In this document: piece after piece, positions 34,154 to 61,902 of the stretch
Position numbering within the stretch: the first letter of the stretch is position 1
How the letters are laid out: the number at the start of each line of letters is the position of its first letter
NCBI GenBank assembly: GCA_000092065.1
Contig: CP000595.1
Length of the DNA stretch: 64,000 nt
Origin: Ostreococcus lucimarinus
Taxonomy: Eukaryota
Strand: one strand, 5' to 3'
The notes under the pieces: generated by a model
Told to the model about the DNA's origin: nothing
What the model saw: the letters and a program-made list of their open reading frames with translations, nothing else
Databases searched by the model: none
Position numbers and translations under genes: made by a program

Positions 34154-34593
34154 ATAACACCCCAAAATTGCGAGCTATACCTTATCAGTATGTATTACTT
34201 TCCACGTCCCTAATATGTGCGCGCCGTCGAAGTGCTAATAACTCGCGACGACGCTACAACGCGACGCGCGGCGCGCGCGGCGCCGGGATCTCGCGCTCGT
34301 GATCTTTTACTTTCCGCCGACGCGCCGTTCGCGCGGAACTGCGATTCCGAAGTGTGCCGCTTTCATGCTAGACGTAACTTTTTGATTTTAGATTTTAAGG
34401 ATACAAACGAACTACTCGCGTGATTACACTGGGATACCGCATGGAATAGCGCGTTTGTGACCTAGATACAACTTCGGACAATGGTCTCGAATACAAAGTA
34501 TATTAACACATGAAAACCCATGGGCCACGTCACAAGCACTGGCGTATCAACTTTCGTAGGACATGTGCCAAAGAAGTGTCAATTAATTGCCCA

Positions 34594-44064: not shown

Positions 44065-45648
44065 ATGGGACTGTCTCGAGGGGCGCGCACGGGGTCGTAC
44101 GTCGATCTGTCGAAGGAAGCGACGCGTCCGGGGCAGACGGGGATCTTGGATAACGGAGACGCGGCGTCCGATGGGACGTTCAAGTCGAAGATCATCTGCA
44201 CGCTCGGACCGGTGTCGCGAACGGTGGAGATTTTGGAGGAAATGTTGAGGGCGGGGATGTCGGTCGCGCGGTTCAACTTTTCGCACGGCTCGCACGAGTA
44301 TCACCAGGAGACGTTGGATAATTTGCGCGCGGCGTGCGCGAACACGGGCATTCATTGCGGGGTGCTGCTCGATACCAAGGGGCCGGAGATTCGCACCGGG
44401 ATGCTCGCGTGCGGGGGACCGGTGATGCTCGAAGCGGGGAAGGAGATCGTGCTCACCACGGACTACGAGTTCAAGGGTAGCGCGGAAAAGCTCGCGGTGT
44501 CGTATCCGGACTTGGCCAAGGACGTCAAGCCCGGTTCGAAGATTTTGTGCGCCGACGGTTCCGTCACCTTCACCGTGCTCGAGTGCGACGTCGCCAAGGG
44601 CGAGGTGCGATGCCGCCTCGAAAACAGCGCCAAGCTCGGCGAGCGCAAGAACATGAACTTGCCGGGCGTCAACGTGAACTTGCCCACGATCACCGAGAAG
44701 GATCGCCTCGATTTGATCGAGTGGGGGGTGAAGAACAACGTCGACTTCATCGCCGCCTCGTTCGTTCGCAAGGGAAGCGACGTCGAGTACATTCGCTCCG
44801 TTCTCGGCGACTTCGCGAATAAAGTTTCCATCATCTCCAAGGTTGAGAACATGGAGGGCTTAGATAACTATGACGATATTGTCGAAAAGTCCGACGGCGT
44901 CATGGTCGCTCGCGGCGACTTGGGTATGGAGATTCGCATGGAACAAATATTCTTGGCGCAAAAGCGCATGATCAAGCGGTGCAACTACGCGGGCAAGCCC
45001 GTAGTGACGGCGACGCAAATGCTGGAGTCCATGACGGGTGCCCCGCGCCCGACGCGCGCGGAGGCCACGGACGTGGCCAACGCTATTCTCGACGGTACCG
45101 ACGCCGTGATGCTCTCCGGGGAAACCGCCGCGGGCAACTACGCCATCGACGCGGTCAAGTGCATGGCGTCCATCTGTCGCGAAGCCGAAGCGTACGTGGA
45201 CAACGTGGCGAGCTATCACCAAATCCTCGAGCAACAGCCGATTCCTATGGGCGTCGAAGAGTCTTTGGCTTCGTCCGCCGTTCGTACCGCGCAAAAGGTG
45301 CAAGCCTCCATCATTGTATGCCTCTCTCGCACCGGCACGACTTCTCGTTTGATCGCCAAGTACCGCCCGGATGCGCCAATCTTATCTGTGTGCTACGCTG
45401 AAGAAGCCGATCCGGCGAGTGTTGCGCGCCGCTCGCTCGTCAGCCGTGGCATTATCCCGGTTATCCAACCGCCGGAGTGGGGTCAAGGCAACGCCATCGT
45501 CCCGCAAGAAGTCATGCGTAACGCCATCCTCTACGCCCGTGATACGCTGAAGATCGTCAAGCCTGGCGACGCTGTCGTCGGCGTGCACCGTCTCTTGGGC
45601 GAAGCCATCTTGAAGGTCGTCGTCTGCCCAGAAGGTAACGCCTTCTAA
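44065..45648 (+). CDS. Pyruvate kinase, paralog 1
   Basis: [47 protein letters not shown]...[11 protein letters not shown]... ATG at 44065, 527 aa. Confidence 0.95.
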   Translation: MGLSRGARTGSYVDLSKEATRPGQTGILDNGDAASDGTFKSKIICTLGPVSRTVEILEEMLRAGMSVARFNFSHGSHEYHQETLDNLRAACANTGIHCGVLLDTKGPEIRTGMLACGGPVMLEAGKEIVLTTDYEFKGSAEKLAVSYPDLAKDVKPGSKILCADGSVTFTVLECDVAKGEVRCRLENSAKLGERKNMNLPGVNVNLPTITEKDRLDLIEWGVKNNVDFIAASFVRKGSDVEYIRSVLGDFANKVSIISKVENMEGLDNYDDIVEKSDGVMVARGDLGMEIRMEQIFLAQKRMIKRCNYAGKPVVTATQMLESMTGAPRPTRAEATDVANAILDGTDAVMLSGETAAGNYAIDAVKCMASICREAEAYVDNVASYHQILEQQPIPMGVEESLASSAVRTAQKVQASIIVCLSRTGTTSRLIAKYRPDAPILSVCYAEEADPASVARRSLVSRGIIPVIQPPEWGQGNAIVPQEVMRNAILYARDTLKIVKPGDAVVGVHRLLGEAILKVVVCPEGNAF

Positions 45649-45813
45649 GGACTCAAAGAATCGTTCTTTTCCATCACACGTATTGTCGGCAGCACGCTCT
45701 GCACACACGCGCTCTGCACCCATCGCGCGGTAGGAAGTAATCTCGCCTTATCCGGCACATCACAATATTACACAAAACTATTTTCTCCAAAAGCTACCGC
45801 TCGACTGCTGGCG

Positions 45814-47055
45814 TTAGTCGTCTTCGTCAAAGACAGATTCCATCATGAGCTTGAACTCGTTCATGCTCTCGACGCCAGCGATGCTCGGTGTGGAGTTGTC
45901 GCCGCGCATCATGGGCGAAACAATCGGCGGTGCGCGCGGATGCAAGTCGTCACCCGCGACGGCGTTGGACCAGGAATCAATCTGATCGTCTTCGTTCGCG
46001 AGCTCGAGGATGGTCGCCGCGTCTTCCCTGGTGTACTGGTGCGTGAATCGTCTCTCTTCGTCGCCCGAATCGCCATCTTCGACGTCTTCCACGACAACCT
46101 CATCTTCTAATCGCGCAGTGGCGACGACATCCTTGTACAAATTCGTCGGAGCTCGAGTATACTCGATCGGTTTACTCTTCACTTTCTCCTCCAAATCCGC
46201 CACGAGCTTGAGCGTTGTCTCGTGCGTCAAAGACGCGTCGACGGGCAATCCCAAAACCCGCGCCTTTGGTGGCGAAACCGGCGTCGGCGGCGCGCTCGAT
46301 CGCGGTCGTAATGCCTGTTCACGTCCGACGCCCATAAATGCGGCATACGGGTCCCACGGCGCGTCATCTCCGCCCGCGGGTTTCGGCGACGTCATCGCCG
46401 GCTCGAAATTCGCCTTCGCCTCCGGGCTGTCTTCGACGGGCATGGGTGTCAGGCTTAACGCTACGCGCGGTGTCGGCGTCGATACCTCCGCCTCATCACT
46501 TCTCCTCGTCTCTATCGTGTTCAACGGCGGCGAAGGTGCGCGCTCTACGACGCCCGGAAGCGCCGCAGCGCTCGCCGCCTTCGTCGGCGTCTCCACGACG
46601 CTCTGCAACGCCTCGTCCACGACGCGTTCACCCAACAGCTCGCGAAGCTCGTCCTCAAGCGCGCGCAAGCGTTCCAACGCGCTCCCCTTGGACGGTTCCC
46701 ACGGTCGCCACGGTCGCTCACTGTCTCGCGCGTCTCTCTCTCGCGCGTCCCGCTCGGCGTCCCGCTCGGGCGCCGCCCCGCCGTCCTCTGCGCGACCCGA
46801 ACCCGTCGTCTCCCCCTCCAGCTGCGCGAGCACGCGCGGTAAATCACGCATGAGCACTCGCGCTTGCGCGAGATCGATCTCGTCCAGTTCGTCGTCGTCG
46901 AACGCGTCCGACGCGACGTCTGGAATACCGCTCGAACGTCGATTCGCGTCGTCGCCGGCTCCGCGCTCGTCGCGCATGATCTCGAGCGCGCGCGCGCGCA
47001 GGTCGACGTCGACGTCGACGTCCGTCGGCGCGCCGCGCGCGGCGAGGGGCGACAT
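45814..47055 (-). CDS. Hypothetical acidic, predicted-disordered protein
   Basis: 413-aa ORF with ATG start, D/E/P/A-rich. I recognise no domain. Coding status rests on length and GC3 only. Confidence 0.3.
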   Translation of the reverse strand: MSPLAARGAPTDVDVDVDLRARALEIMRDERGAGDDANRRSSGIPDVASDAFDDDELDEIDLAQARVLMRDLPRVLAQLEGETTGSGRAEDGGAAPERDAERDARERDARDSERPWRPWEPSKGSALERLRALEDELRELLGERVVDEALQSVVETPTKAASAAALPGVVERAPSPPLNTIETRRSDEAEVSTPTPRVALSLTPMPVEDSPEAKANFEPAMTSPKPAGGDDAPWDPYAAFMGVGREQALRPRSSAPPTPVSPPKARVLGLPVDASLTHETTLKLVADLEEKVKSKPIEYTRAPTNLYKDVVATARLEDEVVVEDVEDGDSGDEERRFTHQYTREDAATILELANEDDQIDSWSNAVAGDDLHPRAPPIVSPMMRGDNSTPSIAGVESMNEFKLMMESVFDEDD

Positions 47056-47257
47056 CGACGCGCGATGGGCGCGAGGCGACGACTGAAGCGGCGGTTCGTT
47101 CGCGCACCAACCAACGTTTATTTATTTCTGCAACGAGCGAGACGCGCGGAACGGGCGGCTGCGGACGCGCACGCGCGAGGCGTCGCGCCGCCGGATGACG
47201 AGGCGAAAGTTGACGACTATCGCGATGTACAACACGGCAGGACGCGCGATGCGTCGG

Positions 47258-48580
47258 CTAAATACCATCTAAATCGTCGAAGATGTCGAATTCTTCCTTT
47301 TCCTCGTCGCGTTCGCGAGGATCGAGTCGACGCTCGCGGACGAAGAACGCGGAGGCGAATCGACCTTTGCGGTAGCGTCGAGCGACGACGCGACGCTCGG
47401 TATCGTCTAACATCGCGCTCGGTGGGCCTTGGTCGTAGCGACCGCACTCGACGACGAGTTGGTCGTCGACGGATTCGACGAGGACCCAAATGTGGTTGGG
47501 AAGGAACACCAACGGCGAGTTCCCGCCGAGGACGTACTCACCGCCCATGGCCCAGCTCGATGGGGACTTGACCGCCCACCACGGAACCACAAGCATGCCC
47601 TCGGGATCACGCGCCGCCGCCTCGATTTCCTCTTTCGCTCGTCGCTCCTCTGCTTCCCTCTCCGCCTCCGCGGCGCGCGCGAGCGCTGGATCGTTTGGTT
47701 TTTGTTCCGCAAGCTTTTGCGCTGGACCGACGTCTATCGGCGAAGACGTCGACGCATCCTCACCACTTGTTTCGCGCTCTTCGGGTACATCTGCTAGCGC
47801 TTCGAGCGCTATGAATGTCACCCCGCTCGTCGCTCGCCATTCGCCGACGCTCACGGCGTCTTCGGTTAAAATATCCCCCGTCGCCGGACTCGCCGCCCGC
47901 GTCTCGCATTCGCTCGCCGTCTCGTGAGTGATTTCGATTCCACACAACTCCCAGTTCCGCCTCTGTCCCGGTGCCGCGCGCACGCGAAGCGAGATCCGCC
48001 GCCGCTCTCTCGGCGCCTCCTCTTCGGCAAACGCAAACGCGAACCCAACCTCCGCGCCCTCGACGCACTCTGGAAGCGTCTTCGGCCCATCGCAATAACA
48101 ACCTTGCACGATGAACATTTTAGCCATCTGTCCGCCCGCGCACACGTCGTGCGATTCCGCGAACGCAACGTCATTCTTCCCGTATTCGCACCCCGCTTCC
48201 GGGTACAACTTCTTCGTCTCCAATCGCAACCCATCGCCATCGCTCGTCTTGCCTCCGCTCGTCACGATTTGCCACTCCATGACGTCCACACCGTACTCCT
48301 TGAACGCATCGGGGACGTAATTACTCGGCAGCGGCACCGCGGCACCCGTGCGCGGATCGAACGTCGCGCTCGCTCCGGCGTATTCGCCCGCGTGCGCGGC
48401 GACGAAGTCATCCCAGACGTCCGAGGGCGGCCAATCGCGATTGGCTTCGAGCGCTCTCGACGCGACGTGCGCGCAATGACGCGCGTGAATTTTGAGTCGC
48501 GCCGAGGTCGACGTCGAGCGCGCGCACGCGCCGTGGCGATGCGTTTTCTGTACGCTCCAAAAAGTACACTGGGACGTCAT
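47258..48580 (-). CDS. Conserved hypothetical protein (possibly DUF3598-like), start uncertain
   Basis: C-terminal ...VVPWWAVKSPSSWAMGGEYVLGGNSPLVFLPNHIWVLVESVDDQLVVECGRYDQG... The first plausible ATG (MTSQCTFW) is at 48580. The ORF-track N-terminal 190 aa is R-rich and overlaps the divergent GT1 gene, so it is probably spurious. Confidence 0.35.
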   Translation of the reverse strand: MTSQCTFWSVQKTHRHGACARSTSTSARLKIHARHCAHVASRALEANRDWPPSDVWDDFVAAHAGEYAGASATFDPRTGAAVPLPSNYVPDAFKEYGVDVMEWQIVTSGGKTSDGDGLRLETKKLYPEAGCEYGKNDVAFAESHDVCAGGQMAKMFIVQGCYCDGPKTLPECVEGAEVGFAFAFAEEEAPRERRRISLRVRAAPGQRRNWELCGIEITHETASECETRAASPATGDILTEDAVSVGEWRATSGVTFIALEALADVPEERETSGEDASTSSPIDVGPAQKLAEQKPNDPALARAAEAEREAEERRAKEEIEAAARDPEGMLVVPWWAVKSPSSWAMGGEYVLGGNSPLVFLPNHIWVLVESVDDQLVVECGRYDQGPPSAMLDDTERRVVARRYRKGRFASAFFVRERRLDPRERDEEKEEFDIFDDLDGI

Positions 48581-48811
48581 TGCGCGCCTCTCGCGTCGTC
48601 GATGCGACGCAAAAGACGCCGAAAGCGCGCGTGTCGAATGACACACCGCGCGTTCCGTCAACAAAACTCGCTTGCGTCGTAAACGTCGCGTTTTCGCGTC
48701 GACGCGGGGTGAAATGGCGAACACATTGGGACAGCAGGTTGTTAACATTTGGCGAGTCAAAACTTGTGACGGTCGAACTCGTCGCACATCGAGGCGGGCG
48801 ACGACGCGAGA

Positions 48812-50116
48812 ATGCGCGCGCGGCGTAAACGGTTCCAAGTAATTGTCAGCGCGTGTTACGGCTCGCGCGGGGACGTGATGCCGTGTTTGACGATCGCCGC
48901 CGCGTTGGCGCGGCGGCTCGAAGGCCAAGCAACGGTGGTCGCCATGGCGAATCCAGTGTTTGAGAATGCCGTCGCGGCGAACGTGCGGTTCATCGGTGTG
49001 GGGAGTCGAGATGAATACGAGTGCGTGCAACGCGACCACGCTTCTAGGCGAGACGCGCGCGTGGTGGTGCGGTATTGGTTGGATCATTTGGAGACGCACG
49101 CGGAGCGTATTCTTGAGGCGCGCGCAGACGCTGGAAGGACGATTGTGTTGGCTCACACGCTCGATTTGGCGGTGCGGTGCGTGGACGAGCGCGCTAACGA
49201 CGAATGTTTAACGTGTTACTCCCTGGTGCTCTCGCCCGCGCTGTTGAGAACGCCAAATCAAACGATTCCGCCGTTCGCGGGTGAGCGCCTTCGGTGTTTC
49301 GGGCGATCGCGTTGGGCGATGCGCGCAGCGGATTGCCTAGTCGATATCGCGTTCGCACCGCAGCTCAACGCGTTTCGCGCTTCGCTCGGGTCGACAAAAC
49401 CAGTCAAAAGAGTGTTTGACGAGTGGTTTTTATGTAAAGCCGGCGTGTTCGCGATGTATCCCGAATATTTCGAGCGAGCCGCAGACGCCGGCTCGAGAAA
49501 AGTATTCCAAATAGACTTTCCCCAAGAAGGCGGCGACGTGAACGTGACTGGCTTGAATGCGATTCGCGTCGCTCGAGAGTTCATCGATCGCGATGACGCG
49601 CCGACCGTCGTTTTCGTATCAGCCAGTGGAAATCCACCCTTTGCGTCGCAATTTTTCGCCACCGCCGTGAAGGCGATGCGACGGCTGGCGGGCGCGAAAG
49701 CCATCTTGCTGACGCGTCATCGCGATCGGATCGGCGAGTTACCCGAAAACGCGATCCACATCGACTTTCTCCCTTTGCACCTCTGTCGCGACGCTGGCTT
49801 GAAAATCGCTGCGCTCGTTCATCACGGGACCATCGGGTGCTCGGCGACGGCGTTGCGAAGCGCATGGCCGCAAGTCGTCGTTCCAGCGGCGTTCGACCAG
49901 CCGTACAACGCCGCGCTCCTCGAAGCGATGGGTGCGGCGCAAATTATCCACATGACACGTCTCACGCGCACGCGGCTTGTGAAAGCGCTTAAAATTGTGT
50001 TCAAGGAAGAGGCCCGCGCGCCGGAAACCGCGCCGCGACGTCGAGCGAACGACGCGTCGTCACCTCAAGCGCGCGTCGCGGAAATCATCGCTAAGGAATT
50101 ATTGCAATACGGCTAA
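48812..50116 (+). CDS. Family-1 UDP-glycosyltransferase (sterol/macrolide GT-like)
   Basis: N-terminal KRFQVIVSACYGSRGDVMP and C-terminal HHGTIGCSATALRSAWPQVVVPAAFDQPYNAALLEAMGAA match GT1 signatures (HHGGAGT...PQ...DQ). ATG at 48812. Confidence 0.75.
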   Translation: MRARRKRFQVIVSACYGSRGDVMPCLTIAAALARRLEGQATVVAMANPVFENAVAANVRFIGVGSRDEYECVQRDHASRRDARVVVRYWLDHLETHAERILEARADAGRTIVLAHTLDLAVRCVDERANDECLTCYSLVLSPALLRTPNQTIPPFAGERLRCFGRSRWAMRAADCLVDIAFAPQLNAFRASLGSTKPVKRVFDEWFLCKAGVFAMYPEYFERAADAGSRKVFQIDFPQEGGDVNVTGLNAIRVAREFIDRDDAPTVVFVSASGNPPFASQFFATAVKAMRRLAGAKAILLTRHRDRIGELPENAIHIDFLPLHLCRDAGLKIAALVHHGTIGCSATALRSAWPQVVVPAAFDQPYNAALLEAMGAAQIIHMTRLTRTRLVKALKIVFKEEARAPETAPRRRANDASSPQARVAEIIAKELLQYG

Positions 50117-50124
50117 ATATACAT

Positions 50125-51237
50125 CTACTCTACGATCACGTCGCTGTCGCTGTCGTGCATATCGTCGTCGCTATCATCGCTCACGTCGCTCACGTCCCTG
50201 GCCCACGATTGCACTCTCGCGCGTTCGACTTCTCTTCTCTCCGCCGACCGCAAGCGTCGGATCTTTTCAGTCGACGTCACGACTTCGCCGTCTCGCTCGC
50301 AATCACGCGAGGCGTGGACTCGAGGCGTCGTCGTTTCCGTCGCGGGTTCTCTCGCCGCGCCGGCGCCGATCGCCGCGCCCCAGGTGAGACGTTTTCCGCA
50401 CCGCGCGCACGGCCCGTGGTCCGGGATCAATCGACTCGACCACGACAACGCCTCGTCCCCGGCGCGATCGAAAAAATGACGCGCCAAGCACACCGGATGA
50501 AAACGCGCGCCGCACGTCGCGCACCCGACGGCGCGATCGCTTCGAATCGCCTTCCCGCACGCGTCCACGCCGCACTTCAGCGCTTCCCCGCCCGGCCGAG
50601 ACGCCGACGCCGACGCGCTCGGCGTCCCACTCACACCGACGTCCATCACCCGCGCTCGCATCGCATCATCCATCTCCTCATCCATCTCCTCCTCCTCCGC
50701 GTTCGCGCTCGCCGCGACGATCGCATCCATCTCCCGCGTCGTCGTTCGTCTCCGCTCCACGTGCGCCGGAATCGCGTCCGCGTACTTTTCAATCAGCCTC
50801 TCCCCGACCTCGCTCATGCAGTGCACCGTCAGCGGCATGTGTTTCCACGGCGCCGTGTTCAACATCCCACACATCACCATCGCCTTCTTCCCCGGCGCGC
50901 TCGTTTTATCGCTCACTCCGCGCTCCCTCGCCAACGTTCGCGTCGCTCGACAGCTCGCCGGTCGCTGCCACGCCCACTCAAACTGCAGCGCCTGCACCTT
51001 GTCGCTGAATCCCGAGACGACGAGCACCATGTCGCACGGTCGCAGTCGCATCGTGTACTTGGCCCCGTTCGCGATCGCGCCGTTGTGCTGCGCGAGTCGT
51101 CGCGGCGGGTTCGTCGTGAATCCGACGTACGACTTTCCCTTCTTGCTCGGATCGAGGCTCACGACGAGGTAACACGCGTAGAGCGCGCGCGCGGGCGCGC
51201 GGCGCGTCGGCGCGTCGCGCGTCGGGGGCGCGCGCAT
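50125..51237 (-). CDS. SLX1: Structure-specific endonuclease subunit SLX1 (GIY-YIG nuclease plus C-terminal zinc finger)
   Basis: LYACYLVVSLDPSKKGKSYVGFTTNPPRRLAQHNG...FEWAWQRP is a GIY-YIG domain. The C-terminus is the Cys-rich CGVDACGKAIRSDRAVGCATCGARFHPVCLARHF. ATG at 51237. Confidence 0.8.
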   Translation of the reverse strand: MRAPPTRDAPTRRAPARALYACYLVVSLDPSKKGKSYVGFTTNPPRRLAQHNGAIANGAKYTMRLRPCDMVLVVSGFSDKVQALQFEWAWQRPASCRATRTLARERGVSDKTSAPGKKAMVMCGMLNTAPWKHMPLTVHCMSEVGERLIEKYADAIPAHVERRRTTTREMDAIVAASANAEEEEMDEEMDDAMRARVMDVGVSGTPSASASASRPGGEALKCGVDACGKAIRSDRAVGCATCGARFHPVCLARHFFDRAGDEALSWSSRLIPDHGPCARCGKRLTWGAAIGAGAAREPATETTTPRVHASRDCERDGEVVTSTEKIRRLRSAERREVERARVQSWARDVSDVSDDSDDDMHDSDSDVIVE

Positions 51238-51526
51238 CGCGCGGCGCGCGCGACGGCGACGGCGACGCGCGATCGATTGTGACGGTTGGTGTCTGCGGTT
51301 CTTTTTTTCGCCGTGTGTAGTGGATTAATGATGGTATCCAGAATATAGGCCGTTTCGAGGAGTGTGTGCGGAAGGACACCGGACGCTCTTAATTTTTTAA
51401 GAGGTCGGCGTTGTTCACTTAAGCCTACTGCGTCGCGTTCGTCGCCTCGCGAAGGATGAATGATGAATGATGAATGTGGCGTTACAAGGCGCGGCGATGG
51501 CGAATAAAGGTGACGGCGGCGCGCTG

Positions 51527-54500
51527 CTACGCGATGGCGTCGTCGTCGTCGCGCGCGTTCAAGGCTTGCGCGATGAGACGCGCGTTTTCGGCGTTGTGAA
51601 TGGCGAGCGAACCGGTCGCCGGCGCGGCGCTCGGCGGGCGGCCGACGAATCGAACGCGTCTGTTTTCTTCGTCGACAGACGCGCGGACGCGGGTGGCGCG
51701 CTCGGTTGTGGCGATGCGCGGAGCGACGAAAGACCAGTAACCCATGTTTTTCGGCTCCTCTTGCGCCCAGACGAGATGGGCGTTGGGATAGCGCTGTAAT
51801 CGACGCGCCAGGGCGTCGTGAGGAAACGGGAACAGCTGCTCCAATCGAATGATGGCGACGTCGTCGATCTTCTTCGCCGCGCGTTGCCTGGCGAGCGAGT
51901 AATAAATCTTGCCCGTGCACAAAATCACGCGTTTGATCTCGCCGTTCGGTTTGAGCGGAATGTTTTCGTGACGCGTGACGTCGTCTCCCGCGTCGCCGTC
52001 GGCGATGACGCGCCGGAACGAAGACTTCGGCGCAAAGTCCATGAGCTTGGACGCGCAGTGCTTGTGATGCAGAAGCGTTTTGGGCGTGAGCACGACAAGT
52101 GGTTTTGAGTGCGGAGAGCTTATTTGCCGCCGAAGCGCGTGGAAGTATTGCGCCGGCGTCGATGGCTGCACCATCACGAAGTTGGCCTGCGCCATGACAG
52201 AGGCTCGCGCGCGGCGGCGCATGTAACGAATCCAGTCTCGCCTGTGCACCTTGCCGCTCGACCCGAAATACGCTTCGACGTCGTCCCACATCCCACTCTC
52301 TGCGGCATCAGCGCCGTTCGCATCTTGGCCTTGGCCGAACGTGTCCATCTTAGATTTACTCTCGGCGTCGTTTCGCGTCAAGATGGAGCGAATGTTTTCC
52401 AATTCCACGAAATCATTCTTGTCCGGCCCGAGCGCGTCGAATGTGCGTTGGGCGAACGCGAGATCGGCCGCGGCGTTCCCAGGGAGCGAGTCGCAGTCGT
52501 CGTTCGCCGCCGCGAGCCAACGTTCGGGGCGTGCTGTGGAGTGATCCGGGCCTTGACCCTCATACCCGTGCGGTAAGAGTAAAACGATGTCGCTTCGCTG
52601 ACCCCAACGTTCTTCGCCCGAGCAAATATATTGGTCGATGATGACCTGCGCGTTGTTTGCGAAGTCGCCAAACTGTGCTTCCCAAAGCACGAGCGCTTCT
52701 TTACCCATCTCGGATGCGAAACCGTACTCGAATCCCAACACCGCGTGTTCGCTCAGTGGGGAATTCGCAGCGGTGAATTTGTCTTGCGGACCCATGTTCA
52801 TATTGTCCAGCGGCACGTGTTCATGCGACGTGCGATTGCAATACACCGCGGCGTGACGTTGATTGAAGGTTCCTCGAACGCAATCTTGCCCACTCAGTCG
52901 AACGTGCGCGTGGGAGCCGATCGGGGGATCTTCGCCTTCGCCCGTCCACCACGGGACGTGATTTTCCCATCGCTTTTCGCATGGGTGCATGAGAAGCGAC
53001 GCAAAAGCGAGCGCTTCGGCGGTCGCCCAATCGATTTGCCCTGCACCTACCTGGACATCGGGCTCCATGGCGCGTCGACGCGCTTCGAACATCGCCTTGA
53101 CGTGTGGATGAAGCATAAAATCAGTGTCCTCGGGAGGCGTAGTGATGGAGTGGCAAATCTTCTGCAGCGCATCAATCGGCATCCCGGTGCCCGCCGCCGT
53201 CACGCGAGCTTCGCGACCGGATACGCCTGTAGAGACCGCTCGCGTCGACGCGAGCCACGATTCGGTAGTTCGAATGAAGTCTTGGTGCGTGGCACCTTCC
53301 GCGGCGAACTCCTTCTCCATCCCTCGACGCAAGTCGTCGAGCTCATCCTTGCTCAGGATGCCCTCCGCCACGCACGCGTTGGCGTAATTCTCCGCCACTC
53401 TCGGGGTGGCTTCAATTCTTCGAGACATGAGCGGAAGTGTGATGGATGGATCATCGAGCTCGTTGTGACCGAATCGACGGTAGCACACGTAGTTGACGAC
53501 GACGTCGGATTGAAATTCAGCTCGATAGTCCGCAGCCAAGCGCATGGCGGAGACGACGGCGTCAGGGTCGTCGCCGTTGACGTGAATGATCGGCGCGCCG
53601 TAGGCTTTCGCGACGTCACTCGGGTGTGGACTCGAGCGCGCGCGTCGAGGCACAGTGGTGAAACCGATCTGGTTGTTCACCACCACGTGCACCGTGCCCC
53701 CGGTGGTGTAATCGGGCAAGTCTTGCAACTGCATCACCTCGCCGTTTTGTCCGAGCCCACAAAATGACGCGTCGCCGTGCAACAGCAAGGGCAGAACGTG
53801 CGCCCGCGCGCTCGCACCTTCGGTTTGTGAATCACGCTTGAACTGTTTCGCGCGAACCACGCCGCTGACGACGGCGTTGACCATTTCCAAATGACTCGGA
53901 TTCGGCACCAGAGTCAGCGCCACTTGCTTTGCTCCTCGCTCGACGTCGACGTCCACAACGGCTCGCGCGCCGAGATGGTATCGAACGTCTCCGACTAGAA
54001 ATGATGACCTATCGTCTACGATTTCCGCGCATATCGCTCCCAAGGGTTTGCCGAACACGTTGTGTAACACGTTCAAACGCCCCCGATGCGCCATGCCTAG
54101 AACGACGCACCCCACGTCTCGCTCCGCGGAACGCTCGACGAACGCTTGTAAACCCGGCACCAAGCTCTCCGCGCCCTCCAACCCGAATCGCTTCGCCGAA
54201 GGGAACTTTTCCGCGAGAAACACCTCCAATCGATCCGCCGTCAACAACCGCTCGAGCGTTCGTCTTCGCTCCGTCGCCGAAGCTTCTCGAGGGCCGCACT
54301 CGACTTGTTCCCTCAACCATCGCTTTCTCTCCTTGCTCGTCAAATGATTACACTCCACGCTCATCGTGCCGCAATACACATCTCTCAACCTTTCGAATAA
54401 CTCATCGACGCGCCACGCCGTCTTCGCGCGCGCGCCGCTCGGATCCAGCGTCGCCGCGTCCTCGCCCAGATGAAACCTCTTCTCCGGCGCGCGACGCGCG

Positions 54501-54943
54501 CTCTCGCTCAGCCCCAAATACTCCCCCAAGCTCACCTTCGTCTTGCAGTCCTCCTTATAAAAGTGATCCGGGTACCCTTGCAACAGCGCGTGAATGTCTC
54601 GCGCGTCTTTCGGCGTCGTGGCCTCCATCGTCTCGTACCCTCGCACGATCGGCCCGAGCGAGCGCCCCAGCGGGTCCAACGCCGCCGTCAGGTGTCCCCG
54701 CGCTCGCACCGCCCGCGTGAGCTCCGTCAGCGCCAGCGCGTCCGTGACGTCGTCGAACCGATCGCCGTCGTCGTTCGCGCCCGTCGACGCCGTCGTCGAC
54801 GCCGTCGTGGACGACGCGCGACGCGCAATCACCGTCAACGTCGGCGGATTACCGTTACCGCGCGCACCCCTCGCGCCGGCGTCCGCGGCGCGCGCGCGGT
54901 CGAGCGCGCGCGCGAGCGCGCTCGTGGCTCTTCGCGTCGACAT
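51527..54943 (-). CDS. 2-oxoglutarate dehydrogenase E1 component
   Basis: YCGTMSVECNHL..., the TPP-binding GMAHRGRLNVLHNVFGKP, and the C-terminal WAQEEPKNMGYWSFVAPRI. The probable ATG (MSTRRATSALARAL presequence) is at 54943; the ORF-track extension to 55525 runs through a (CTACG)4 repeat and is spurious. Confidence 0.9.
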   Translation of the reverse strand: MSTRRATSALARALDRARAADAGARGARGNGNPPTLTVIARRASSTTASTTASTGANDDGDRFDDVTDALALTELTRAVRARGHLTAALDPLGRSLGPIVRGYETMEATTPKDARDIHALLQGYPDHFYKEDCKTKVSLGEYLGLSESARRAPEKRFHLGEDAATLDPSGARAKTAWRVDELFERLRDVYCGTMSVECNHLTSKERKRWLREQVECGPREASATERRRTLERLLTADRLEVFLAEKFPSAKRFGLEGAESLVPGLQAFVERSAERDVGCVVLGMAHRGRLNVLHNVFGKPLGAICAEIVDDRSSFLVGDVRYHLGARAVVDVDVERGAKQVALTLVPNPSHLEMVNAVVSGVVRAKQFKRDSQTEGASARAHVLPLLLHGDASFCGLGQNGEVMQLQDLPDYTTGGTVHVVVNNQIGFTTVPRRARSSPHPSDVAKAYGAPIIHVNGDDPDAVVSAMRLAADYRAEFQSDVVVNYVCYRRFGHNELDDPSITLPLMSRRIEATPRVAENYANACVAEGILSKDELDDLRRGMEKEFAAEGATHQDFIRTTESWLASTRAVSTGVSGREARVTAAGTGMPIDALQKICHSITTPPEDTDFMLHPHVKAMFEARRRAMEPDVQVGAGQIDWATAEALAFASLLMHPCEKRWENHVPWWTGEGEDPPIGSHAHVRLSGQDCVRGTFNQRHAAVYCNRTSHEHVPLDNMNMGPQDKFTAANSPLSEHAVLGFEYGFASEMGKEALVLWEAQFGDFANNAQVIIDQYICSGEERWGQRSDIVLLLPHGYEGQGPDHSTARPERWLAAANDDCDSLPGNAAADLAFAQRTFDALGPDKNDFVELENIRSILTRNDAESKSKMDTFGQGQDANGADAAESGMWDDVEAYFGSSGKVHRRDWIRYMRRRARASVMAQANFVMVQPSTPAQYFHALRRQISSPHSKPLVVLTPKTLLHHKHCASKLMDFAPKSSFRRVIADGDAGDDVTRHENIPLKPNGEIKRVILCTGKIYYSLARQRAAKKIDDVAIIRLEQLFPFPHDALARRLQRYPNAHLVWAQEEPKNMGYWSFVAPRIATTERATRVRASVDEENRRVRFVGRPPSAAPATGSLAIHNAENARLIAQALNARDDDDAIA

Positions 54944-55008
54944 GCGCGCGGCGCTCGCGGCGACGAGGACGCGAGCGACGCGTCGTCGTGTGCGGATGCG
55001 ATTCGTTC

Positions 55009-55382
55009 GTGAATCCTCAGTCGACGACGCGATGTCGGACGCGCGACCGCCGCGCGCGCCGCGCGAGGACGCGCGCGCGGCGACGCCGGAGCACGTCGTC
55101 GTCGACGGCGCGCAGTGCGAGGCCGTGATCGCGCGATTGGCGCACGAACCGTCGCTGGGACACGCGTACGTGGTGTCGCACGCGAAATCCCGCGCGGCGT
55201 TCTTCGCGCGCGAGGCGCGCGCGATGGACGCGCACGCGTCGGGGACGTGCGCGAGGATGGCGAGCGACGCGACGAGCGCGATGGAGACGATCGGGGCGGT
55301 GGCGAGGGTGGATTTTGATGGGGTGATGGAGAAGATGGATCGGTGCGCGGCGGCGTTGGAGGCGTTGGCGAAGCCGTCGTAG
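55009..55382 (+). CDS. Possible small protein-coding gene (124 aa) between OGDH and the ankyrin gene
   Basis: ATG-initiated ORF MSDARPPRAPREDARAATPEHVVVDGAQCEAVIARLAHEPSLGHAYVVSH..., with almost every third codon position G/C. This is the genome's coding signature but is weak evidence in 70 % GC DNA. I recognise no homology. Confidence 0.25.
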
Positions 55383-55440
55383 ATAGATTCGTTGCGTAGC
55401 GTAGCGTAGCGTAGATTATCGTTGATTTCGTCATTGTCTT

Positions 55441-56247
55441 TCATTTCGTGGCGTACAGCGCGATCATTCTCGAGAATCGCGCGCGCGATGTCATCGGTTT
55501 GAGGTCGGCGTCGAACAGAATCCATCGTATCACGTCTTCTGGCAAGTCAAGTTCGGGCCAAGCGCGAAGGAAGTGATTCACCGCAGGCGTGAGCTCGCGC
55601 AGCGACACGTACCCGTCACGTTGACGCGACAATGCGATTTGGACAATCAAATCTGTCGTACAGGCGCATATTCGTTGCCAACCGACGACGTATCGCGCCG
55701 ATTCCGGCGCGCTGTGATCTTGCGCGTACTTCAAACACCCCAAACGTCCAGTATAGGCGGCACATGCGCACGTCTCCTCGTTCCAAGGACACCCGTGCTC
55801 GTGCGCGTACTTCAAACACTCCAAATGTCCATGCATGGCGGCAAATGAGCACGTCCACTCGTCCCAAGGACACCCGTGCTCGTGCGCGTACTTCAAACAC
55901 TCCAAATGTCCACTATAGGCGGCACACCGGCACGTCCCCTCGTCCCAAGGACACCCGTGCTCGTGCGCGTACTTCAAACACTCCAACTCTCCATACTTGG
56001 CGGCAAACTGGCACGTGTACGCGTCCCACTCGTGCCCGCACTCGCGCGCCATCCGCACGAGTTCCAAGTCTCCCAGAAACGCCGCGCACGCCGTCACGCA
56101 CGCCCCGTGGCCTCCCCCCAGCGACTCGTCCTCGAGCGCGCGCAGCGCGTCGTCTATCGCACGCGCCGTGAACCAACCGACGCTCCCTCTCGCCGACAGC
56201 AATCGCGGTCGCAACCGCCGTCGCAACCGTCGCCTCGCGCGCGCCAT
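55441..56247 (-). CDS. Ankyrin-repeat protein with four near-identical tandem repeats
   Basis: The 33-aa unit HLECLKYAHEHGCPW[DN]E.TC..AA...G is repeated four times (DNA units of about 99 bp at 55690-56060). The probable ATG is at 56247; the ORF-track N-terminus overlaps RPL23 exon 1 and intron 1. Confidence 0.65.
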   Translation of the reverse strand: MARARRRLRRRLRPRLLSARGSVGWFTARAIDDALRALEDESLGGGHGACVTACAAFLGDLELVRMARECGHEWDAYTCQFAAKYGELECLKYAHEHGCPWDEGTCRCAAYSGHLECLKYAHEHGCPWDEWTCSFAAMHGHLECLKYAHEHGCPWNEETCACAAYTGRLGCLKYAQDHSAPESARYVVGWQRICACTTDLIVQIALSRQRDGYVSLRELTPAVNHFLRAWPELDLPEDVIRWILFDADLKPMTSRARFSRMIALYATK

Positions 56248-56382
56248 CCTGTCGATATCGACCGCCTCGACGGCGACCTCAACCGTCGCGATCGATCGAC
56301 CGATCGGTCCGTGTTGTAACCCTCGATCGCGACACCCGCGCGCGCGTCGGCGTCCGCCTTTCCGCGCCGCGACGCACGCGCA

Positions 56383-56999
56383 CGATGTCCAAGAGAGGTG
56401 CGCCGACGACGACGCGACGCGCGCGCGCGCGAACGCCATCGATCGATCGATCGACCCGCGCGACGCGCGACGCCGCGCGACGCGCGCGCTCGAACATCGA
56501 CGCGCGCGCGATCGCGCTAGGGCTTTGACGCGCGCGACGCGAACGATGGACGACTGACGCGATGGACGCGCGCTTCGACGACGCGACAGGCGGCGGTAAT
56601 GCCTCCGGCACGAAATACAAAATGTCCTACGGCGTCCCCGTCGGCGCGGTGGTGAACTGCGCGGACAACACCGGGGCGAAGAACTTGTATTTGATCGCCG
56701 TGAAGCGATGGGGCTCGCGACAAAACCGCTTGCCGGCGGCGAACCCCGGTTCGATGGTCATGGCGACGGTGAAGAAGGGGAAGCCGGATTTGCGTAAAAA
56801 GGTTTTCCCGGCCATCATCGTGCGTCAGCGCAAGCCGATTCGACGCAAGGAAGGGTTGATCATTTACTTTGAGGACAACGCGGGGGTGATTTGCAACCCG
56901 AAGGGCGAGATGAAGGGGAGCGCCATCGCGGGGCCGGTGGCGAAGGAGTGCGCCGATCTCTGGCCGCGTGTGGCCAGCGCGGCGAGCTCTATCATCTAG
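56383..56999 (+). CDS. RPL23: 60S ribosomal protein L23 (uL14), two exons: join(56383..56395, 56590..56999)
   Basis: Exon 1 is ATGTCCAAGAGAG followed by a GTGCGC donor. A 194-nt intron has an ACTGAC branch motif. The product [43 protein letters not shown]... is 140 aa, the same length as eukaryotic L23. Confidence 0.9.
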
Positions 57000-57233
57000 A
57001 TCTCGACGCGATCGAGATCGAGAGAGAATCGCGCGGTTTGAAGTAGAAGTAGACTCGCCCGGTTTCATTCAATAGCCAAGGAGGTTTTGCCCAAACTTTC
57101 GCGGCGCGCGCGCGCGGTTTGTGTGTTTGCGTTCGTCGTCACGTCGCGGCGCGCGAATCGCGATGCGCGCCTCGATCGCGCGCGCGTGACGCTCGCGTCT
57201 ACATCGCAGGACTCGCTCGCGCGAGCGCGCGGC

Positions 57234-58082
57234 ATGCGCGCCGTCGACCTTTCGTTCGTCGTCCAACCGACACTAAAAAGTGCACCGCGGCTGCGGGCGA
57301 CGTCCGAGCGCTGGCGGCGCGCGCGCGCGCGCGCGTCGCCGCGAGAAGGCGCCGCGTCATCGTCGTCATCGACTGATTCGTGCGTCACGACGCGCGATCT
57401 CGTGGATACGTCGCTGAAGTTTGCCTACGCGTGGGCGGCGTTCGGTTACGTCGTCCCGAGCGCGGCGCTCGCGGCGATGGTCGACGCGGACGATCTCGGC
57501 GCGAGCTTAGCGGTCGTGCAGCTTTCGTGCGAGAGCGCGAAAGCCGCGGCGACGGTGCGGGTGCTGGACGAGATAGATCGGGGCGTGGGAAGTCTGAGCT
57601 CGAGCGACGACGACGGTTTCGTCGCGCGCGGCGCGGCGTTCGGCGGCGTCGCCGTCGTCCTCGCGCGCGCCGTCGATGGATTAGTTTCGACGACGTCGAC
57701 CGTGGACGCCGTCGCGGCTGCCGACGCACCGACATCGCTCATCGCGCACGCGGGTCCGTTCGCTGCGTCGTGCGCCGTCGTCGCGTCGTGCGTCGTCGCT
57801 CCCGCGCTCGAAGAGCTGTTCTTTAGAGGGTTCCTCTGCGAGGACATTCGTCGACGCACGTCCAACGCCGCGCTCGCGATCGGCGTTTCTTCGGCCATCT
57901 TCGCGCTCGCGCACTTTTCTTTGCCAGACGTCCCATCGCTGTTCGCGTGCGGCGTCGTCTTCGCGCTCGCGAGTCAAAGTCGCGGAGGCGTTCGCTCCGC
58001 CTTCGTCGCGCACGCGCTGTTCAACTCCAGCGTCCTCATCGAGCGCGCCGCGGTCGCGCGCGCCATCGTCGACGCATCATAG
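57234..58082 (+). CDS. CPBP-family (CAAX protease/Abi) intramembrane metalloprotease
   Basis: The EELFFRG motif, ...FALAHF..., multiple TM helices. The ORF-track start at 57087 is TTG; the first ATG is at 57234. Confidence 0.7.
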   Translation: MRAVDLSFVVQPTLKSAPRLRATSERWRRARARASPREGAASSSSSTDSCVTTRDLVDTSLKFAYAWAAFGYVVPSAALAAMVDADDLGASLAVVQLSCESAKAAATVRVLDEIDRGVGSLSSSDDDGFVARGAAFGGVAVVLARAVDGLVSTTSTVDAVAAADAPTSLIAHAGPFAASCAVVASCVVAPALEELFFRGFLCEDIRRRTSNAALAIGVSSAIFALAHFSLPDVPSLFACGVVFALASQSRGGVRSAFVAHALFNSSVLIERAAVARAIVDAS

Positions 58083-58167
58083 CTCGCGCGGGCGTCTGAG
58101 CGCGCCTCTCATCGTACAGTGCTGTGGTATTCATTCCATTCTAGTTTGCTACTTGCCCTCGCCGCGT

Positions 58168-58599
58168 CTAGTCCTTGATCCGCTCCAGCTCCGCCAATCG
58201 CTCCATGATCGCCCGCTTACTCGTATCCTGCACCTCCCCTCCCAATAAAAACTCATCCACGAGCAAGTACACCTTCTGGAAGTTGAACACCAGATCGAGT
58301 TCGCACACGTTGGCGAAGAAGTGATCCAGCATCTCCACGAATAAGTGAATCGATTCCAAGTGCGTCAGCTCGTTGTCGTTCAGGTCCACGCACAGCGAGA
58401 AGAACAACCCGGCGTAGCGTCTGTATATCACTTTATAGTTGCGAAACTCCACGAAGTTCGTGTGCTTCGGGTCGCGGTTGACGACGAGGCGGTGGACTTC
58501 GGATTCTAATTTTCGCTTTTCATCGTCGGCGAACGGGACGTAATACTTGGCCAAGCGCGTCTTGCCTTGACGGTTTTGGAGCAGGATGAAGCGTATCAT
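58168..58599 (-). CDS. Clathrin adaptor complex sigma (small) subunit
   Basis: [23 protein letters not shown]...[14 protein letters not shown]...ERLAELE, 143 aa, full-length AP sigma. ATG at 58599. Confidence 0.9.
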
Positions 58600-58760
58600 C
58601 GATCGGTTTCGACGTCGGGCGGTGCGTGACGCGCGCGGTGGCGACGCGCGCGCGCGTGTGCGGACCGCGAAGGATGACTGAGGACCTGGGCCGTCTCGAG
58701 GCGTCGCGGCTTTGTACGAGGTGCAAGATTTCTGATTTAAAATTATTAATTGTGCTTGAT

Positions 58761-60479
58761 TTATTCGGGAACGATGATGACTTTAAGCACGGCCTCGCCC
58801 ATGATGCGATGGACGCCGACGATGGCGTCGCCCGGTTTCACTAAACCTAAAATGTCGCGGCAGTGTACGATGGCGTTGCGCATGACTTCTTGCGGGTGGC
58901 CGCTCTCGCCGCGCCACGCCGGGTTCTCCAAGAGAGGTACGAGGCCGCGCGTGATGAGCGAGCGGTGCACGACGTCAAGAGCGCGACCTTGGTGATCGGG
59001 CTCTTCGATGCAAACGTTCACGATGCGAGTCTCGGGTCGATACTTGGCGATCATTTGCGCCGTGTGACCGGTGCGAGACAACGTAACGATGAGCGCGGCG
59101 TTCACCTTTTGCGCGGTACGAACGGCGGACGAAGCCAAGGCTTCGGTGATGCCGAGCGGGATCACTTGCTGCTCGAGAATTTGGAAATAGCTCGCGACGT
59201 CATCGACGTACGCTTCGGCTTCGCGACAGATGGACGCCATGCACTTGACCGCGTCTATGGCGTAGTTGCCCGCGGCGGTTTCCCCGGAGAGCATCACGGC
59301 GTCGGTACCGTCGAGAATAGCGTTGGCCACGTCCGTGGCCTCCGCGCGCGTCGGGCGCGGGGCACCCGTCATGGATTCCAACATTTGCGTCGCCGTCACG
59401 ACGGGCTTACCCGCCAAGTTGCACCGCTTGATCATGCGCTTTTGCGCCAAGAATATTTGTTCCATGCGAATCTCCATACCCAAGTCGCCGCGAGCGACCA
59501 TGACGCCGTCGGACTTTTCGACGATGTCGTTAAAGTTATCTAAGCCCTCCATGTTCTCAACCTTGGAGATGATGGAAACTTTATTCGCGAAGTCGCCGAG
59601 AACGGAGCGAATGTACTCGACGTCGCTTCCCTTGCGAACGAACGAGGCGGCGATGAAGTCGACGTTGTTCTTCACCCCCCACTCGATCAAATCGTGGCGA
59701 TCCTTCTCGGTGATCGTGGGCAAGTTCACGTTGACGCCCGGCAAGTTCATGTTCTTGCGCTCGCCGAGCTTGGCGCTGTTTTCGAGGCGGCATCGCACCT
59801 CGCCCTTGGCGACGTCGCACTCGAGCACGGTGAAGGTGACGGAACCGTCGGCGCACAAAATCTTCGAACCGGGCTTGACGTCCTTGGCCAAGTCCGGATA
59901 CGACACCGCGAGCTTTTCCGCGCTACCCTTGAACTCGTAGTCCGTGGTGAGCACGATCTCCTTCCCCGCTTCGAGCATCACCGGTCCCCCGCACGCGAGC
60001 ATCCCGGTGCGAATCTCCGGCCCCTTGGTATCGAGCAGCACCCCGCAATCGACGCCCGTGTTCGCGCACGCCGCGCGCAAATTATCCAACGTCTCCTGGT
60101 GATACTCGTGCGAGCCGTGCGAAAAGTTGAACCGCGCGACCGACATCCCCGCCCTCAACATTTCCTCCAAAATCTCCACCGTTCGCGACACCGGTCCGAG
60201 CGTGCAGATGATCTTCGACTTGAACCCAATCCTCTGCGAGTCTTTCGCCCGAAACGCCGCCTCGCTGTCGTTAAACGCATAGTCCTCGCTCGCCTCCCCC
60301 CCGTTCTCCAGCACGTGCGCCGCGCGCCAATCCCCGACCGATCCTTTGCTCGCCAGCGCGCTCAGCGCTCGCTGGCTCGACAGCCCCGCCAAGGCCACCG
60401 TCCGCCGTCGTTTCTCGTCCCCTCGCGCGTCATCGTGCACGATGGGATCCACGCTCGAGTTTCGCGCGTTCAGTCCCAT
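58761..60479 (-). CDS. Pyruvate kinase, paralog 2 (inverted duplicate of 44065..45648)
   Basis: The core from [11 protein letters not shown] through [10 protein letters not shown] is about 98 % identical at the nucleotide level, including synonymous sites, to paralog 1; the termini are diverged. The probable ATG (MGLNARNSS) is at 60479; the ORF-track extension to 61277 is R-rich and runs antisense to DAPB. Confidence 0.9.
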
Positions 60480-60912
60480 CTCGATCGCCCTCTCGCGCGT
60501 CCCGTCGCCCTCGCCGCGCCGACGTTCGATTCCAAATTCCGAATGCGCCACCGATCGATCCGGCGGCGGCGAACGATCGCGCGTCTCTCGCGCGTCTCTC
60601 GCCTCGTCTCGCCCCCGCGCGCGCTCGGTTCGCTCGATCGACGCCTCGCGCGCGTTCGCTCGCGTCCGGGCTCGCGCGCCGCGGTCGCGCGCGTCGTCGT
60701 GTCGCGTCTGTGCGCGAACACACCCGGGATCGCCGCGTCGGCGCGCGCGATCGATCGCGCGCGCGCGCGACGCCGCGATCGTCGCGCGAGGTTCGACGCG
60801 CGCGCGTCGACCCTCGACCGTCGATCGATCGATCGCTCGAGCGATCGATCGATCGATCGCGCGCGCGCGCGGCGCCGCACACGACGACGGGCGACGCGCG
60901 CGCGCGCGCGCG

Positions 60913-61902
60913 ATGCGCGGCGCGGCGCTCGAGCGCGCGTCCGCGGCGCGCGGCGCGGGACGACGCGCGATCGCGCGCGCGCGGGGCGACGGCGGCGCGA
61001 TGCGCGCGCGCGGGCGCGCGATCGTCGCGACGCGCGCGAGCGCGGACGGCGCGACGACGCGCGTGATGGTGAACGGGGTGAGCGGAAAGATGGGACACGC
61101 GACGGCGTGCGGCGTGGTCAAGCGCGCGGGGTTCGAGCTGGTGCCGTACGCGCTGACGAAGCGGGCGACGGCGGCGACGACGGATGTGCTGGGGACGGAG
61201 GTGCGAGGCGTGGACGTCGGCGAGGAGGACGCGGGAGAGACGCTGGAACGCGCGAAACGGGAGTATCCGGGGTTCATCGTGGTGGATTACACGCAACCGG
61301 ACAGCGTGAACTCGAACGCGGCGCTGTACGTGAAGCACGGGGTGCCGTTCGTGATGGGGACGACGGGGGGTGACCGCGAACGCATGCTCCGAGAGGTGAA
61401 GGAGAGCGGAAATTACGCCGTGATCGCGCCGCAGATGGGGAAGCAGGTGGTGGCGTTTCAAGCGGCGATGAAATTGATGGCCGAACAGTTTCCCGGCGCG
61501 TTCGAGGGGTACACGCTGACGGTGACGGAATCGCACCAGAGTAGTAAAAAGGATACGAGCGGCACGGCGAAAGCCATCGTGGCGTCGTTCAACGATCTCG
61601 GGTGTGGGTTCGATTTGAACGATATCGAGCTCGTGCGCGACGTGGAGAGCCAAACGGGGAAGATGGGCGTGCCCGAAGAACACTTGTTGGGGCACGCGTT
61701 TCACACCTATCGCCTGACGAGCGCGGACGGCACGGTTTCGTTTGAGTTTCAGCACAACGTGTGCGGACGAAGCATTTACGCCGAAGGTACGGTCGACGCG
61801 GTGGGGTTCTTAAAGCGCAAGGTGGACGCGAAGGATCCAAAAACGTTGTACGACATGATCGACGTCTTGAAAGAGGGCGCTATGGGGGAGTGGGTCAAGT
61901 GA
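60913..61902 (+). CDS. DAPB: 4-hydroxy-tetrahydrodipicolinate reductase, plant/plastid type (DAPB)
   Basis: VMVNGVSGKMGHA...PFVMGTTGGDRERM...PQMGKQVVAFQAAMKLMAEQFPGAF...ESHQSSKKDTSGTAKA...FQHNVCGRSIYAEGTVDA is near-identical to the plant DAPB consensus. ATG at 60913. Confidence 0.9.
   Translation: MRGAALERASAARGAGRRAIARARGDGGAMRARGRAIVATRASADGATTRVMVNGVSGKMGHATACGVVKRAGFELVPYALTKRATAATTDVLGTEVRGVDVGEEDAGETLERAKREYPGFIVVDYTQPDSVNSNAALYVKHGVPFVMGTTGGDRERMLREVKESGNYAVIAPQMGKQVVAFQAAMKLMAEQFPGAFEGYTLTVTESHQSSKKDTSGTAKAIVASFNDLGCGFDLNDIELVRDVESQTGKMGVPEEHLLGHAFHTYRLTSADGTVSFEFQHNVCGRSIYAEGTVDAVGFLKRKVDAKDPKTLYDMIDVLKEGAMGEWVK

Follow-up and report, generated by a model that had tools for sequence, protein, structure and literature searches.

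Probable domain-limited concerted evolution of two inverted pyruvate kinase genes in Ostreococcus

Two pyruvate kinase (PK) genes lie in inverted orientation in a window of 64,000 nucleotides from Ostreococcus lucimarinus (contig CP000595.1 of assembly GCA_000092065.1; unless stated otherwise, positions are those of this whole stretch). Comparison of the two genes, within the window and across related algae, indicates that they very probably derive from an old duplication in which the segment encoding the catalytic barrel has been converted repeatedly, giving a long-term concerted evolution that is limited to one domain. The first gene, PK-A (44065-45648, plus strand), has an open reading frame (ORF) of 527 aa, the translation of which is exactly identical to XP_001421558.1 of O. 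lucimarinus CCE9901. The second, PK-B (58761-60479, minus strand), encodes 572 aa, and its translation is 99% identical to a protein (P0012) on a Tara Oceans contig. A first-pass annotation, made from the letters of the window, had described this inverted pair, a nearly identical interior of about 1 kb in which third codon positions were also alike and in which GIHCG/GVDCG and NYDD/NFND were among the few differences, and ends that were strongly diverged at about 50% amino acid identity. The measurements given below uphold all of these points.

Two kinases with a near-identical core and different ends

Both translations match the Pfam families PF00224 (461 and 463 bits) and PF02887 (65 and 61 bits), in each case above the Pfam cut-offs, and both contain the active-site motifs, including MLSGETA. 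In PK-A the profile matches place the PK domain at residues 40-364 and PK_C at residues 399-508. A repeat search of the window recovered inverted arms at 44178-45371 and 59032-60225, which are 1194 nt long, 95% complementary and 13,660 nt apart. Within these arms, ungapped comparison of 44178-45200 on the plus strand (PK-A codons 39 to about 379, corresponding to the A and B domains of the catalytic barrel) with its partner at 60225-59203 on the minus strand found mismatches at 16 of the 1023 nt, the longest stretch free of them being 354 nt. Among the affected codons, seven alter the amino acid and eight are synonymous; the amino acid differences between PK-A and PK-B in this core include GIHCG/GVDCG at 44350-44353, NYDD/NFND at 44870-44872, L215H and Y308L. 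When the genes were aligned by codon, 17 of 1023 nucleotides differed in the core versus 146 of 429 in the C-terminal part (Fisher p = 5e-66), third-position identity was 97% versus 50%, and synonymous divergence (dS) was 0.040 versus 1.1, which excludes a uniform divergence along the genes. The nonsynonymous divergence (dN) of the C-terminal part was 0.33, and amino acid identity was 60% in this part and 42% across the 31 alignable codons of the N-terminal part. The GC content of third codon positions (GC3) is 0.78-0.84 in the core compared with 0.64-0.74 in the C-terminal part; this elevation fits GC-biased conversion, without proving it.

The 5′ edge of the tract is abrupt, since immediately upstream of 44178 the identity between PK-A and PK-B is at chance level, whereas sliding identity reveals a graded 3′ edge, with about 80% identity for 100-170 nt past 45200 and 50-65% thereafter. 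The tract thus spans the whole Pfam PK barrel and ends short of PK_C. A splice site was considered as the cause of the sharp 5′ edge and rejected, because there is no AG acceptor at 44178 in either copy (ACG/T and GGG/T, the slash marking the edge) and because the N-terminal extensions are conserved as coding sequence in other species. Upstream of the tract, PK-A has its own N-terminal segment of 38 codons (44065-44177, plus strand), which protein and contig comparison finds conserved in other Ostreococcus lineages. The PK-B-specific extension (60226-60479, minus strand) comprises 85 codons, starts with MGLNARN and is kept in the B copies of O. tauri and other lineages, including its SVDPI, ALSAL and HVLENG motifs. 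Both extensions are therefore conserved across species, and the only motif common to them is (I/V)L(D/E)NG. An upstream prolongation of the PK-B reading frame to position 61277 is artificial, as it runs only through CG-rich low-complexity sequence. Downstream of the tract, the C-terminal (regulatory and tetramer-interface) domain of PK-A (45201-45648, plus strand) is diverged from that of PK-B, with identity decaying gradually over 45201-45371, and the C-terminal domain of PK-B (58761-59202, minus strand) is orthologous to the B-type C-termini of other Ostreococcus.

Judged by their sequences, both genes encode full pyruvate kinases (EC 2.7.1.40) of the cytosolic plant and algal type. The best named relatives of either copy are cytosolic-type enzymes from land plants and from Chlamydomonas and Volvox, with which they share about 60% identity and both Pfam domains; unlike these enzymes, PK-A and PK-B carry the N-terminal extensions of 38 and 85 residues, which are specific to the Ostreococcus/Bathycoccus group. 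The closest solved structures, whose entries are listed just as 'Pyruvate kinase', are presumably those of apicomplexan homotetramers. It had been suggested that the divergent termini might reflect one cytosolic and one plastid enzyme, but such a split appears unsupported given the cytosolic-type relatives of both copies and the acidic character of the PK-B extension; about 13 of its 85 residues are acidic, including three of the first 20, which is atypical of a transit peptide.

The core across Ostreococcus and Bathycoccus

The comparison set comprised five Ostreococcus lineages (O. lucimarinus, O. tauri and three for which X, Z and V are labels of convenience) and two Bathycoccus lineages. 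Isolate genome records represent O. lucimarinus and O. tauri only; the other lineages are represented by metagenome contigs, the reference-type pairs of X, Z and V, and also the Bathycoccus lineages, being drawn from 77 further loci in a scan of Joint Genome Institute (JGI) metagenomes. Codon alignments extended from FKSK to the stop codon and were analysed in 20-codon windows and by neighbour-joining with bootstrap. On O. tauri chromosome 16 (CAID01000016.2), PK-A (71,082-72,665, plus strand) and PK-B (84,660-86,375, minus strand) are inverted as they are in O. lucimarinus, and the genes between them have the same order and orientation: two unknown ORFs, a glycosyltransferase, SLX1, 2-oxoglutarate dehydrogenase E1, ribosomal L14, an Rce1-like protease and AP sigma. 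In lineages Z and V both PK genes are present on a single contig, inverted and 12-13 kb apart. Bathycoccus differs in having its two PK paralogs as direct repeats about 7.7 kb apart (contigs L041, L043, L048, L053 and L055). Here AP sigma is head-to-head with the second PK copy and the N-terminus of the first copy is apparently located on a separate exon; in Bathycoccus-like contigs the PK cores are 100% identical, and the identical stretch enters the C-domain further in L043 than in L041.

Paralog identity was 93-100% in most 20-codon windows up to about core codon 340, with dips to 77-90% in a few core windows of O. tauri, X and V. After codon 340 or so it dropped to 45-80% in six of the seven lineages, and in X the drop came about 20 codons later. 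The low core dS of the O. lucimarinus pair has counterparts in the paralogs of O. tauri (0.077), V (0.11) and X (0.14), and in Z and Bathycoccus the value is about 0, whereas orthologs of different species have a core dS of about 0.7. C-terminal dS between paralogs was 0.65-1.7 (1.1-1.2 in the O. lucimarinus and O. tauri pairs). Nucleotide identity of the cores was correspondingly 98.3% within O. lucimarinus and 96.9% within O. tauri but 84-86% between species, and third positions of the core were 94-97% identical between paralogs of one species versus a fraction of 0.68 between species.

The trees of the two parts differ accordingly. In the core tree, paralogs pair by lineage in all seven lineages with 95-100% bootstrap. 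In the C-terminal tree, the B-type copies of the five Ostreococcus lineages form one clade, with a bootstrap of 100% for amino acids and 88% for nucleotides, and C-terminal amino acid identity between O. lucimarinus and O. tauri is 0.68 for the A-A and 0.80 for the B-B comparison versus 0.53-0.60 when A is compared with B. Since the cores group by species and the C-termini by ortholog type, the duplication very probably predates the Ostreococcus radiation and the core has very probably been homogenised separately in each lineage, in line with the earlier proposal of an old duplication with an interior homogenised by ectopic conversion. Homogenisation extends to synonymous sites, and is therefore not attributable to selection on the protein. 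Moreover, established recombination genetics implies that unequal crossing-over cannot homogenise inverted copies such as those of Ostreococcus, which would leave only non-reciprocal conversion. Between species the C-domains have dN/dS ratios of 0.10-0.16 (about 0.16 for the A type), indicative of purifying selection, which suggests that both C-domains are functional. Amongst Micromonas-like loci (L058-L087), no pair with different termini has a core identity above 90%, so that the pattern is documented in Ostreococcus and Bathycoccus only.

Two further features concern the make-up of the tract. The tract is a mosaic in which O. tauri and lineage X keep older differences in the first ~130 core codons (the 5′ third), where identity falls to 0.77-0.90, and this combination of older and newer stretches implies several conversion events with different end points. 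In addition, a paralog-specific island of two residues persists inside the tract at 44350-44353 (plus strand; partner 60050-60053), with I-H in PK-A and V-D in PK-B. V-D is common to the B copies of O. lucimarinus, O. tauri and X, and I-H/Q to the A copies, whereas the synonymous sites that flank the island are species-specific and the same in both paralogs. Either selection keeps restoring the difference or conversion tracts rarely cover it.

Variation amongst O. lucimarinus-like contigs points in the same direction. The differences between PK-A and PK-B fall into blocks (44350-53, 44870-80, 44987-45027 and 45147 onward) that are found in nearly all combinations at both loci, and of the sites that separate the two reference genes a single one, T at 44708, is confined to the reference PK-A. 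This shuffling of blocks is suggestive of a natural transfer of alleles between the two genes. A lineage related to O. lucimarinus (L014 and L017), with many private core substitutions (about 96% identical), combines a B-type N-terminus with an A-type C-terminus in two of two contigs, both from one study; this swap may be a bias of the assembler or may mean that the interval is inverted in that lineage.

As a mechanism for repeated conversion, we envisage that a break in one PK copy would be repaired with its partner, 13 kb distant on the same chromosome, as template, and that such repair would overwrite the 1.02-kb barrel-encoding segment again and again by non-crossover, non-reciprocal gene conversion, so that the converted segment would evolve in concert within each species. 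The 5′ limit would be the point at which the N-terminal extensions are too diverged to align, and the 3′ limit would be the junction between the barrel and the C-terminal domain, past which about 35% nucleotide divergence probably stops the extension of heteroduplex. Conversions that erased the distinct C-domains would probably have been removed by selection. The outcome would be two isozymes that have a common catalytic core and different N- and C-terminal (allosteric and tetramer-interface) modules, and which presumably differ in function and in regulation.

Several considerations weigh against this interpretation. The evidence for conversion is comparative throughout and no event has been seen directly. 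The shuffling of blocks may in part be assembly mosaicism, because the identical stretches between blocks (106-516 nt) approach or exceed assembler k-mers; similarly, the near-zero core divergence in Z, V and Bathycoccus may be partly artefactual, as near-identical repeats are collapsed by assemblers. Codon bias in a conserved domain, instead of biased conversion, could account for the higher GC3 of the core. Finally, the two Bathycoccus paralogs group together in the C-terminal tree, which leaves either a duplication common to both genera or one that arose twice.

Possible inversion of the interval and other explanations

Because the C-termini of both genes face inward, a crossover inside the core that inverted the 13-kb interval would exchange the C-terminal domains. 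If such crossovers occur alongside conversion, the C-terminal modules would be swapped between promoters and N-termini, and natural populations would contain both orientations together with four isoforms (NA-CA, NB-CB, NA-CB and NB-CA, denoting the types of the two termini). About a dozen contigs with the swapped combinations do exist in short-read metagenomes from six lineages, with an A-type N-terminus and B-type C-terminus in L007-L009, L020, L021 and L026 and the converse in L006, L010, L014, L017, L018, L022, L023, L029 and L030. In every swapped contig the N-terminal type agrees with the outside flank and the C-terminal type with the inside flank, exactly as an inversion predicts; the NA-CB form of O. 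lucimarinus was assembled independently from three samples, and both chimeric genes would stay intact and in frame. We considered whether longer conversion tracts might be the source of the swapped proteins (e.g. P0005, P0169 and P0191) and rejected this, because the match between C-terminal type and inside flank in every contig identifies them as junction swaps, with the switch inside the core. However, where an inverted repeat exceeds the k-mer or read length an assembler may traverse the interval either way, giving the same chimeras. That this happens at the PK repeat is evident from the JGI contig Ga0181574_10002437 (L010, L088; 17,015 nt), each end of which carries B-type upstream sequence together with the B-type N-terminus and 338 nt from the start of the core; these ends are identical over 911 nt and inverted, and since no single inversion yields such a contig, it is a hairpin-like mis-assembly through the repeat. 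Once it had proved to be mis-assembled, metagenome contigs were dropped as proof of inversion. Analogous joins of the N-terminus of the first PK copy to the C-terminus of the second occur across the direct repeats of Bathycoccus contigs. The reference combinations are the only ones in the finished window from CCE9901, in the chromosome record of O. tauri and in every contig of 450-573 kb, and a fixed swap is seen in no lineage. We therefore regard inversion by crossovers within the core as unlikely. A further proposal, that the pair constitutes a natural module-shuffling system in which conversion keeps the catalytic cassette and rare crossovers flip the interval and exchange the C-domains, is a little less likely again; were it true, populations would contain four PK isoforms and two chromosome orientations, and the NA-CB and NB-CA contigs would be real.

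The remaining explanations dispense with repeated exchange. Considered alone, the window shows exactly the pattern that one recent conversion between otherwise independent paralogs would leave, and the first-pass annotation had described a recent tract in these terms. Conversion itself stands, but a single recent event peculiar to this genome is improbable: tracts with like limits occur in O. tauri, in X, Z and V and in both Bathycoccus lineages, the core sequence of each being peculiar to the species, and the mosaics of old and new stretches in O. tauri and X imply repeated events. Collapse of repeats in all of these assemblies would offer an escape from this argument, which is closed for O. 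tauri by its chromosome record (GCA_000214015.2). Extreme purifying selection, including selection on codon usage, might instead hold the cores alike without any exchange of DNA, given that the barrel is generally better conserved than any other part of PK and that core dN/dS between species is about 0.07. Yet the synonymous sites that are so alike between paralogs diverge freely between species, and selection is unable to give species-specific synonymous states that are common to both copies, making this explanation very improbable. Near-identical repeats of 1 kb are also a classic cause of collapsed or duplicated assembly, and one copy, or the identity between copies, could have arisen in this way in the reference. 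However, independent contigs from several projects join PK-B (L001) and PK-A (L002, L003, L011 and L012) to their own unique flanks at 98.7-99.7% identity, so that neither copy is an assembly phantom; the copies differ at 16 core sites and at both termini, and both genes have syntenic counterparts in O. tauri. There is accordingly hardly any prospect that the pair is an artefact, a possibility which the first-pass annotation had itself raised.

Chromosomal setting

A perfect (CCCTAAA)n telomere array occupies positions 1-182 (plus strand), which identifies the window as the left end of an O. lucimarinus chromosome and places the PK pair 44-60 kb from that end, as the first-pass annotation had surmised in locating the genes near a chromosome end. 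An end on the PK-B side was ruled out, as contig L001 runs 27 kb past window position 64000 and the telomere is at the opposite end. The first 4 kb are GC-poor (0.53-0.545 versus about 0.62 elsewhere), and a second GC-poor stretch at 34001-36000 (0.527), with negative GC skew, is surrounded by sequence of 0.60-0.67 GC. PK-B and DapB (60913-61902, plus strand) are divergently oriented, and the region between them contains CG-rich, GATC-rich palindromic low-complexity sequence (60731-61044), in which a (CG)n-like run extends for about 93 units with 67% matches.

Gene calls from the near-identical contigs L001 and L002 were mapped onto the 13.1-kb interval between the PK genes (45649-58760). They comprise a 413-aa ORF (45814-47055, minus strand), a 440-aa ORF listed between this and the next gene, a glycosyltransferase (about 48878-50116, plus), SLX1 (50125-51237, minus), 2-oxoglutarate dehydrogenase E1 (51527-55525, minus), ribosomal L14 (56562-56999, plus), an Rce1-like gene (about 57380-58082, plus) and AP sigma (58168-58599, minus). 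SLX1, a structure-specific endonuclease of the GIY-YIG type with a part in resolving recombination intermediates, is thus encoded between the recombining genes, and its position is kept in O. tauri and other lineages; this location is probably a coincidence. The genes for 2-oxoglutarate dehydrogenase and L14 are separated by sequence that contains an array of 3.9 copies of an 81-nt unit (55714-56028, 84% matches). Contig L007 (8622-12151), otherwise 99% identical to the window, ceases to match near this array (window position about 55887) and continues into genes not in the window (an RRM protein and others), which makes it a structural variant or else a chimera that arose in assembly at a dispersed repeat.

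Relation to known systems and implications

Primate globin genes and the arms of Y-chromosome palindromes are amongst the sequences that evolve in concert by interlocus gene conversion. The same process underlies the concerted evolution of duplicated histone genes in yeast (PMC4700949) and of paralogs in Caenorhabditis (PMC3966223). As in known cases, the PK paralogs are closer within species than are orthologs between species, synonymous sites included, the flanking parts give the orthology tree, the tracts are mosaic and GC3 is raised in the converted part. The PK case differs in that the tract corresponds to one protein domain, the catalytic barrel; that its limits are alike in at least five Ostreococcus lineages and Bathycoccus, the N- and C-terminal modules staying paralog-specific; and that the two-codon island persists inside the tract in three lineages. 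Literature searches on gene conversion of Ostreococcus PK and on concerted evolution of PK found no description of this pair, and a population-genomics paper on O. tauri treats GC-biased conversion in general terms only. The mechanism is ordinary interlocus gene conversion, and the pair is a clean but conventional case of it, notable for its duration and its confinement to one domain.

Inverted repeats can also mediate flip-flop inversion, as in the isomers of the plastid inverted repeat and the 2-micron plasmid of yeast. The inverted PK repeats, of about 1 kb, likewise flank a unique segment, and contigs with the predicted junctions exist; unlike those systems, the PK junctions are explicable by the path that an assembler chooses, one is provably artefactual and the high-quality assemblies all have one orientation.

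A further parallel is provided by the vertebrate isozymes PKM1 and PKM2, which arise from the mutually exclusive exons 9 and 10. The C-terminal domain of PK contains the effector site and one tetramer interface. Like PKM1 and PKM2, the algal enzymes have the same catalytic core and a differing C-domain; the 3′ edge of the tract, after REAEAYVD, would correspond approximately to PKM residues 388-390, near the start of the alternatively spliced segment at the boundary of the A and C domains. In the algae, however, identity of the core is maintained in the DNA of two genes rather than by splicing one, and the difference is larger, as the whole C-domain and the N-terminal extension differ in the algal pair, compared with a segment of 56 residues in PKM1/PKM2.

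The PK genes would thus provide a well-bounded eukaryotic example of conversion limited to one protein domain throughout the evolution of one genus and, probably, of the larger Ostreococcus/Bathycoccus group, in which a common catalytic cassette with diverging regulatory modules would be the DNA-level counterpart of the PKM1/PKM2 splice isoforms. They suggest that two genes can diverge in function while conversion between them continues, and the surviving two-codon island would give a handle on selection against conversion. There are also practical consequences, since the homogenised core will mislead PK phylogenies and ortholog calls in Ostreococcus and Bathycoccus. Short-read metagenome assemblies scramble the locus into chimeric 'proteins'; those of the hairpin-like contig and others of the kind (e.g. 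P0014, P0169 and P0191) are listed in public protein clusters as though genuine isoforms, a warning for gene catalogues.

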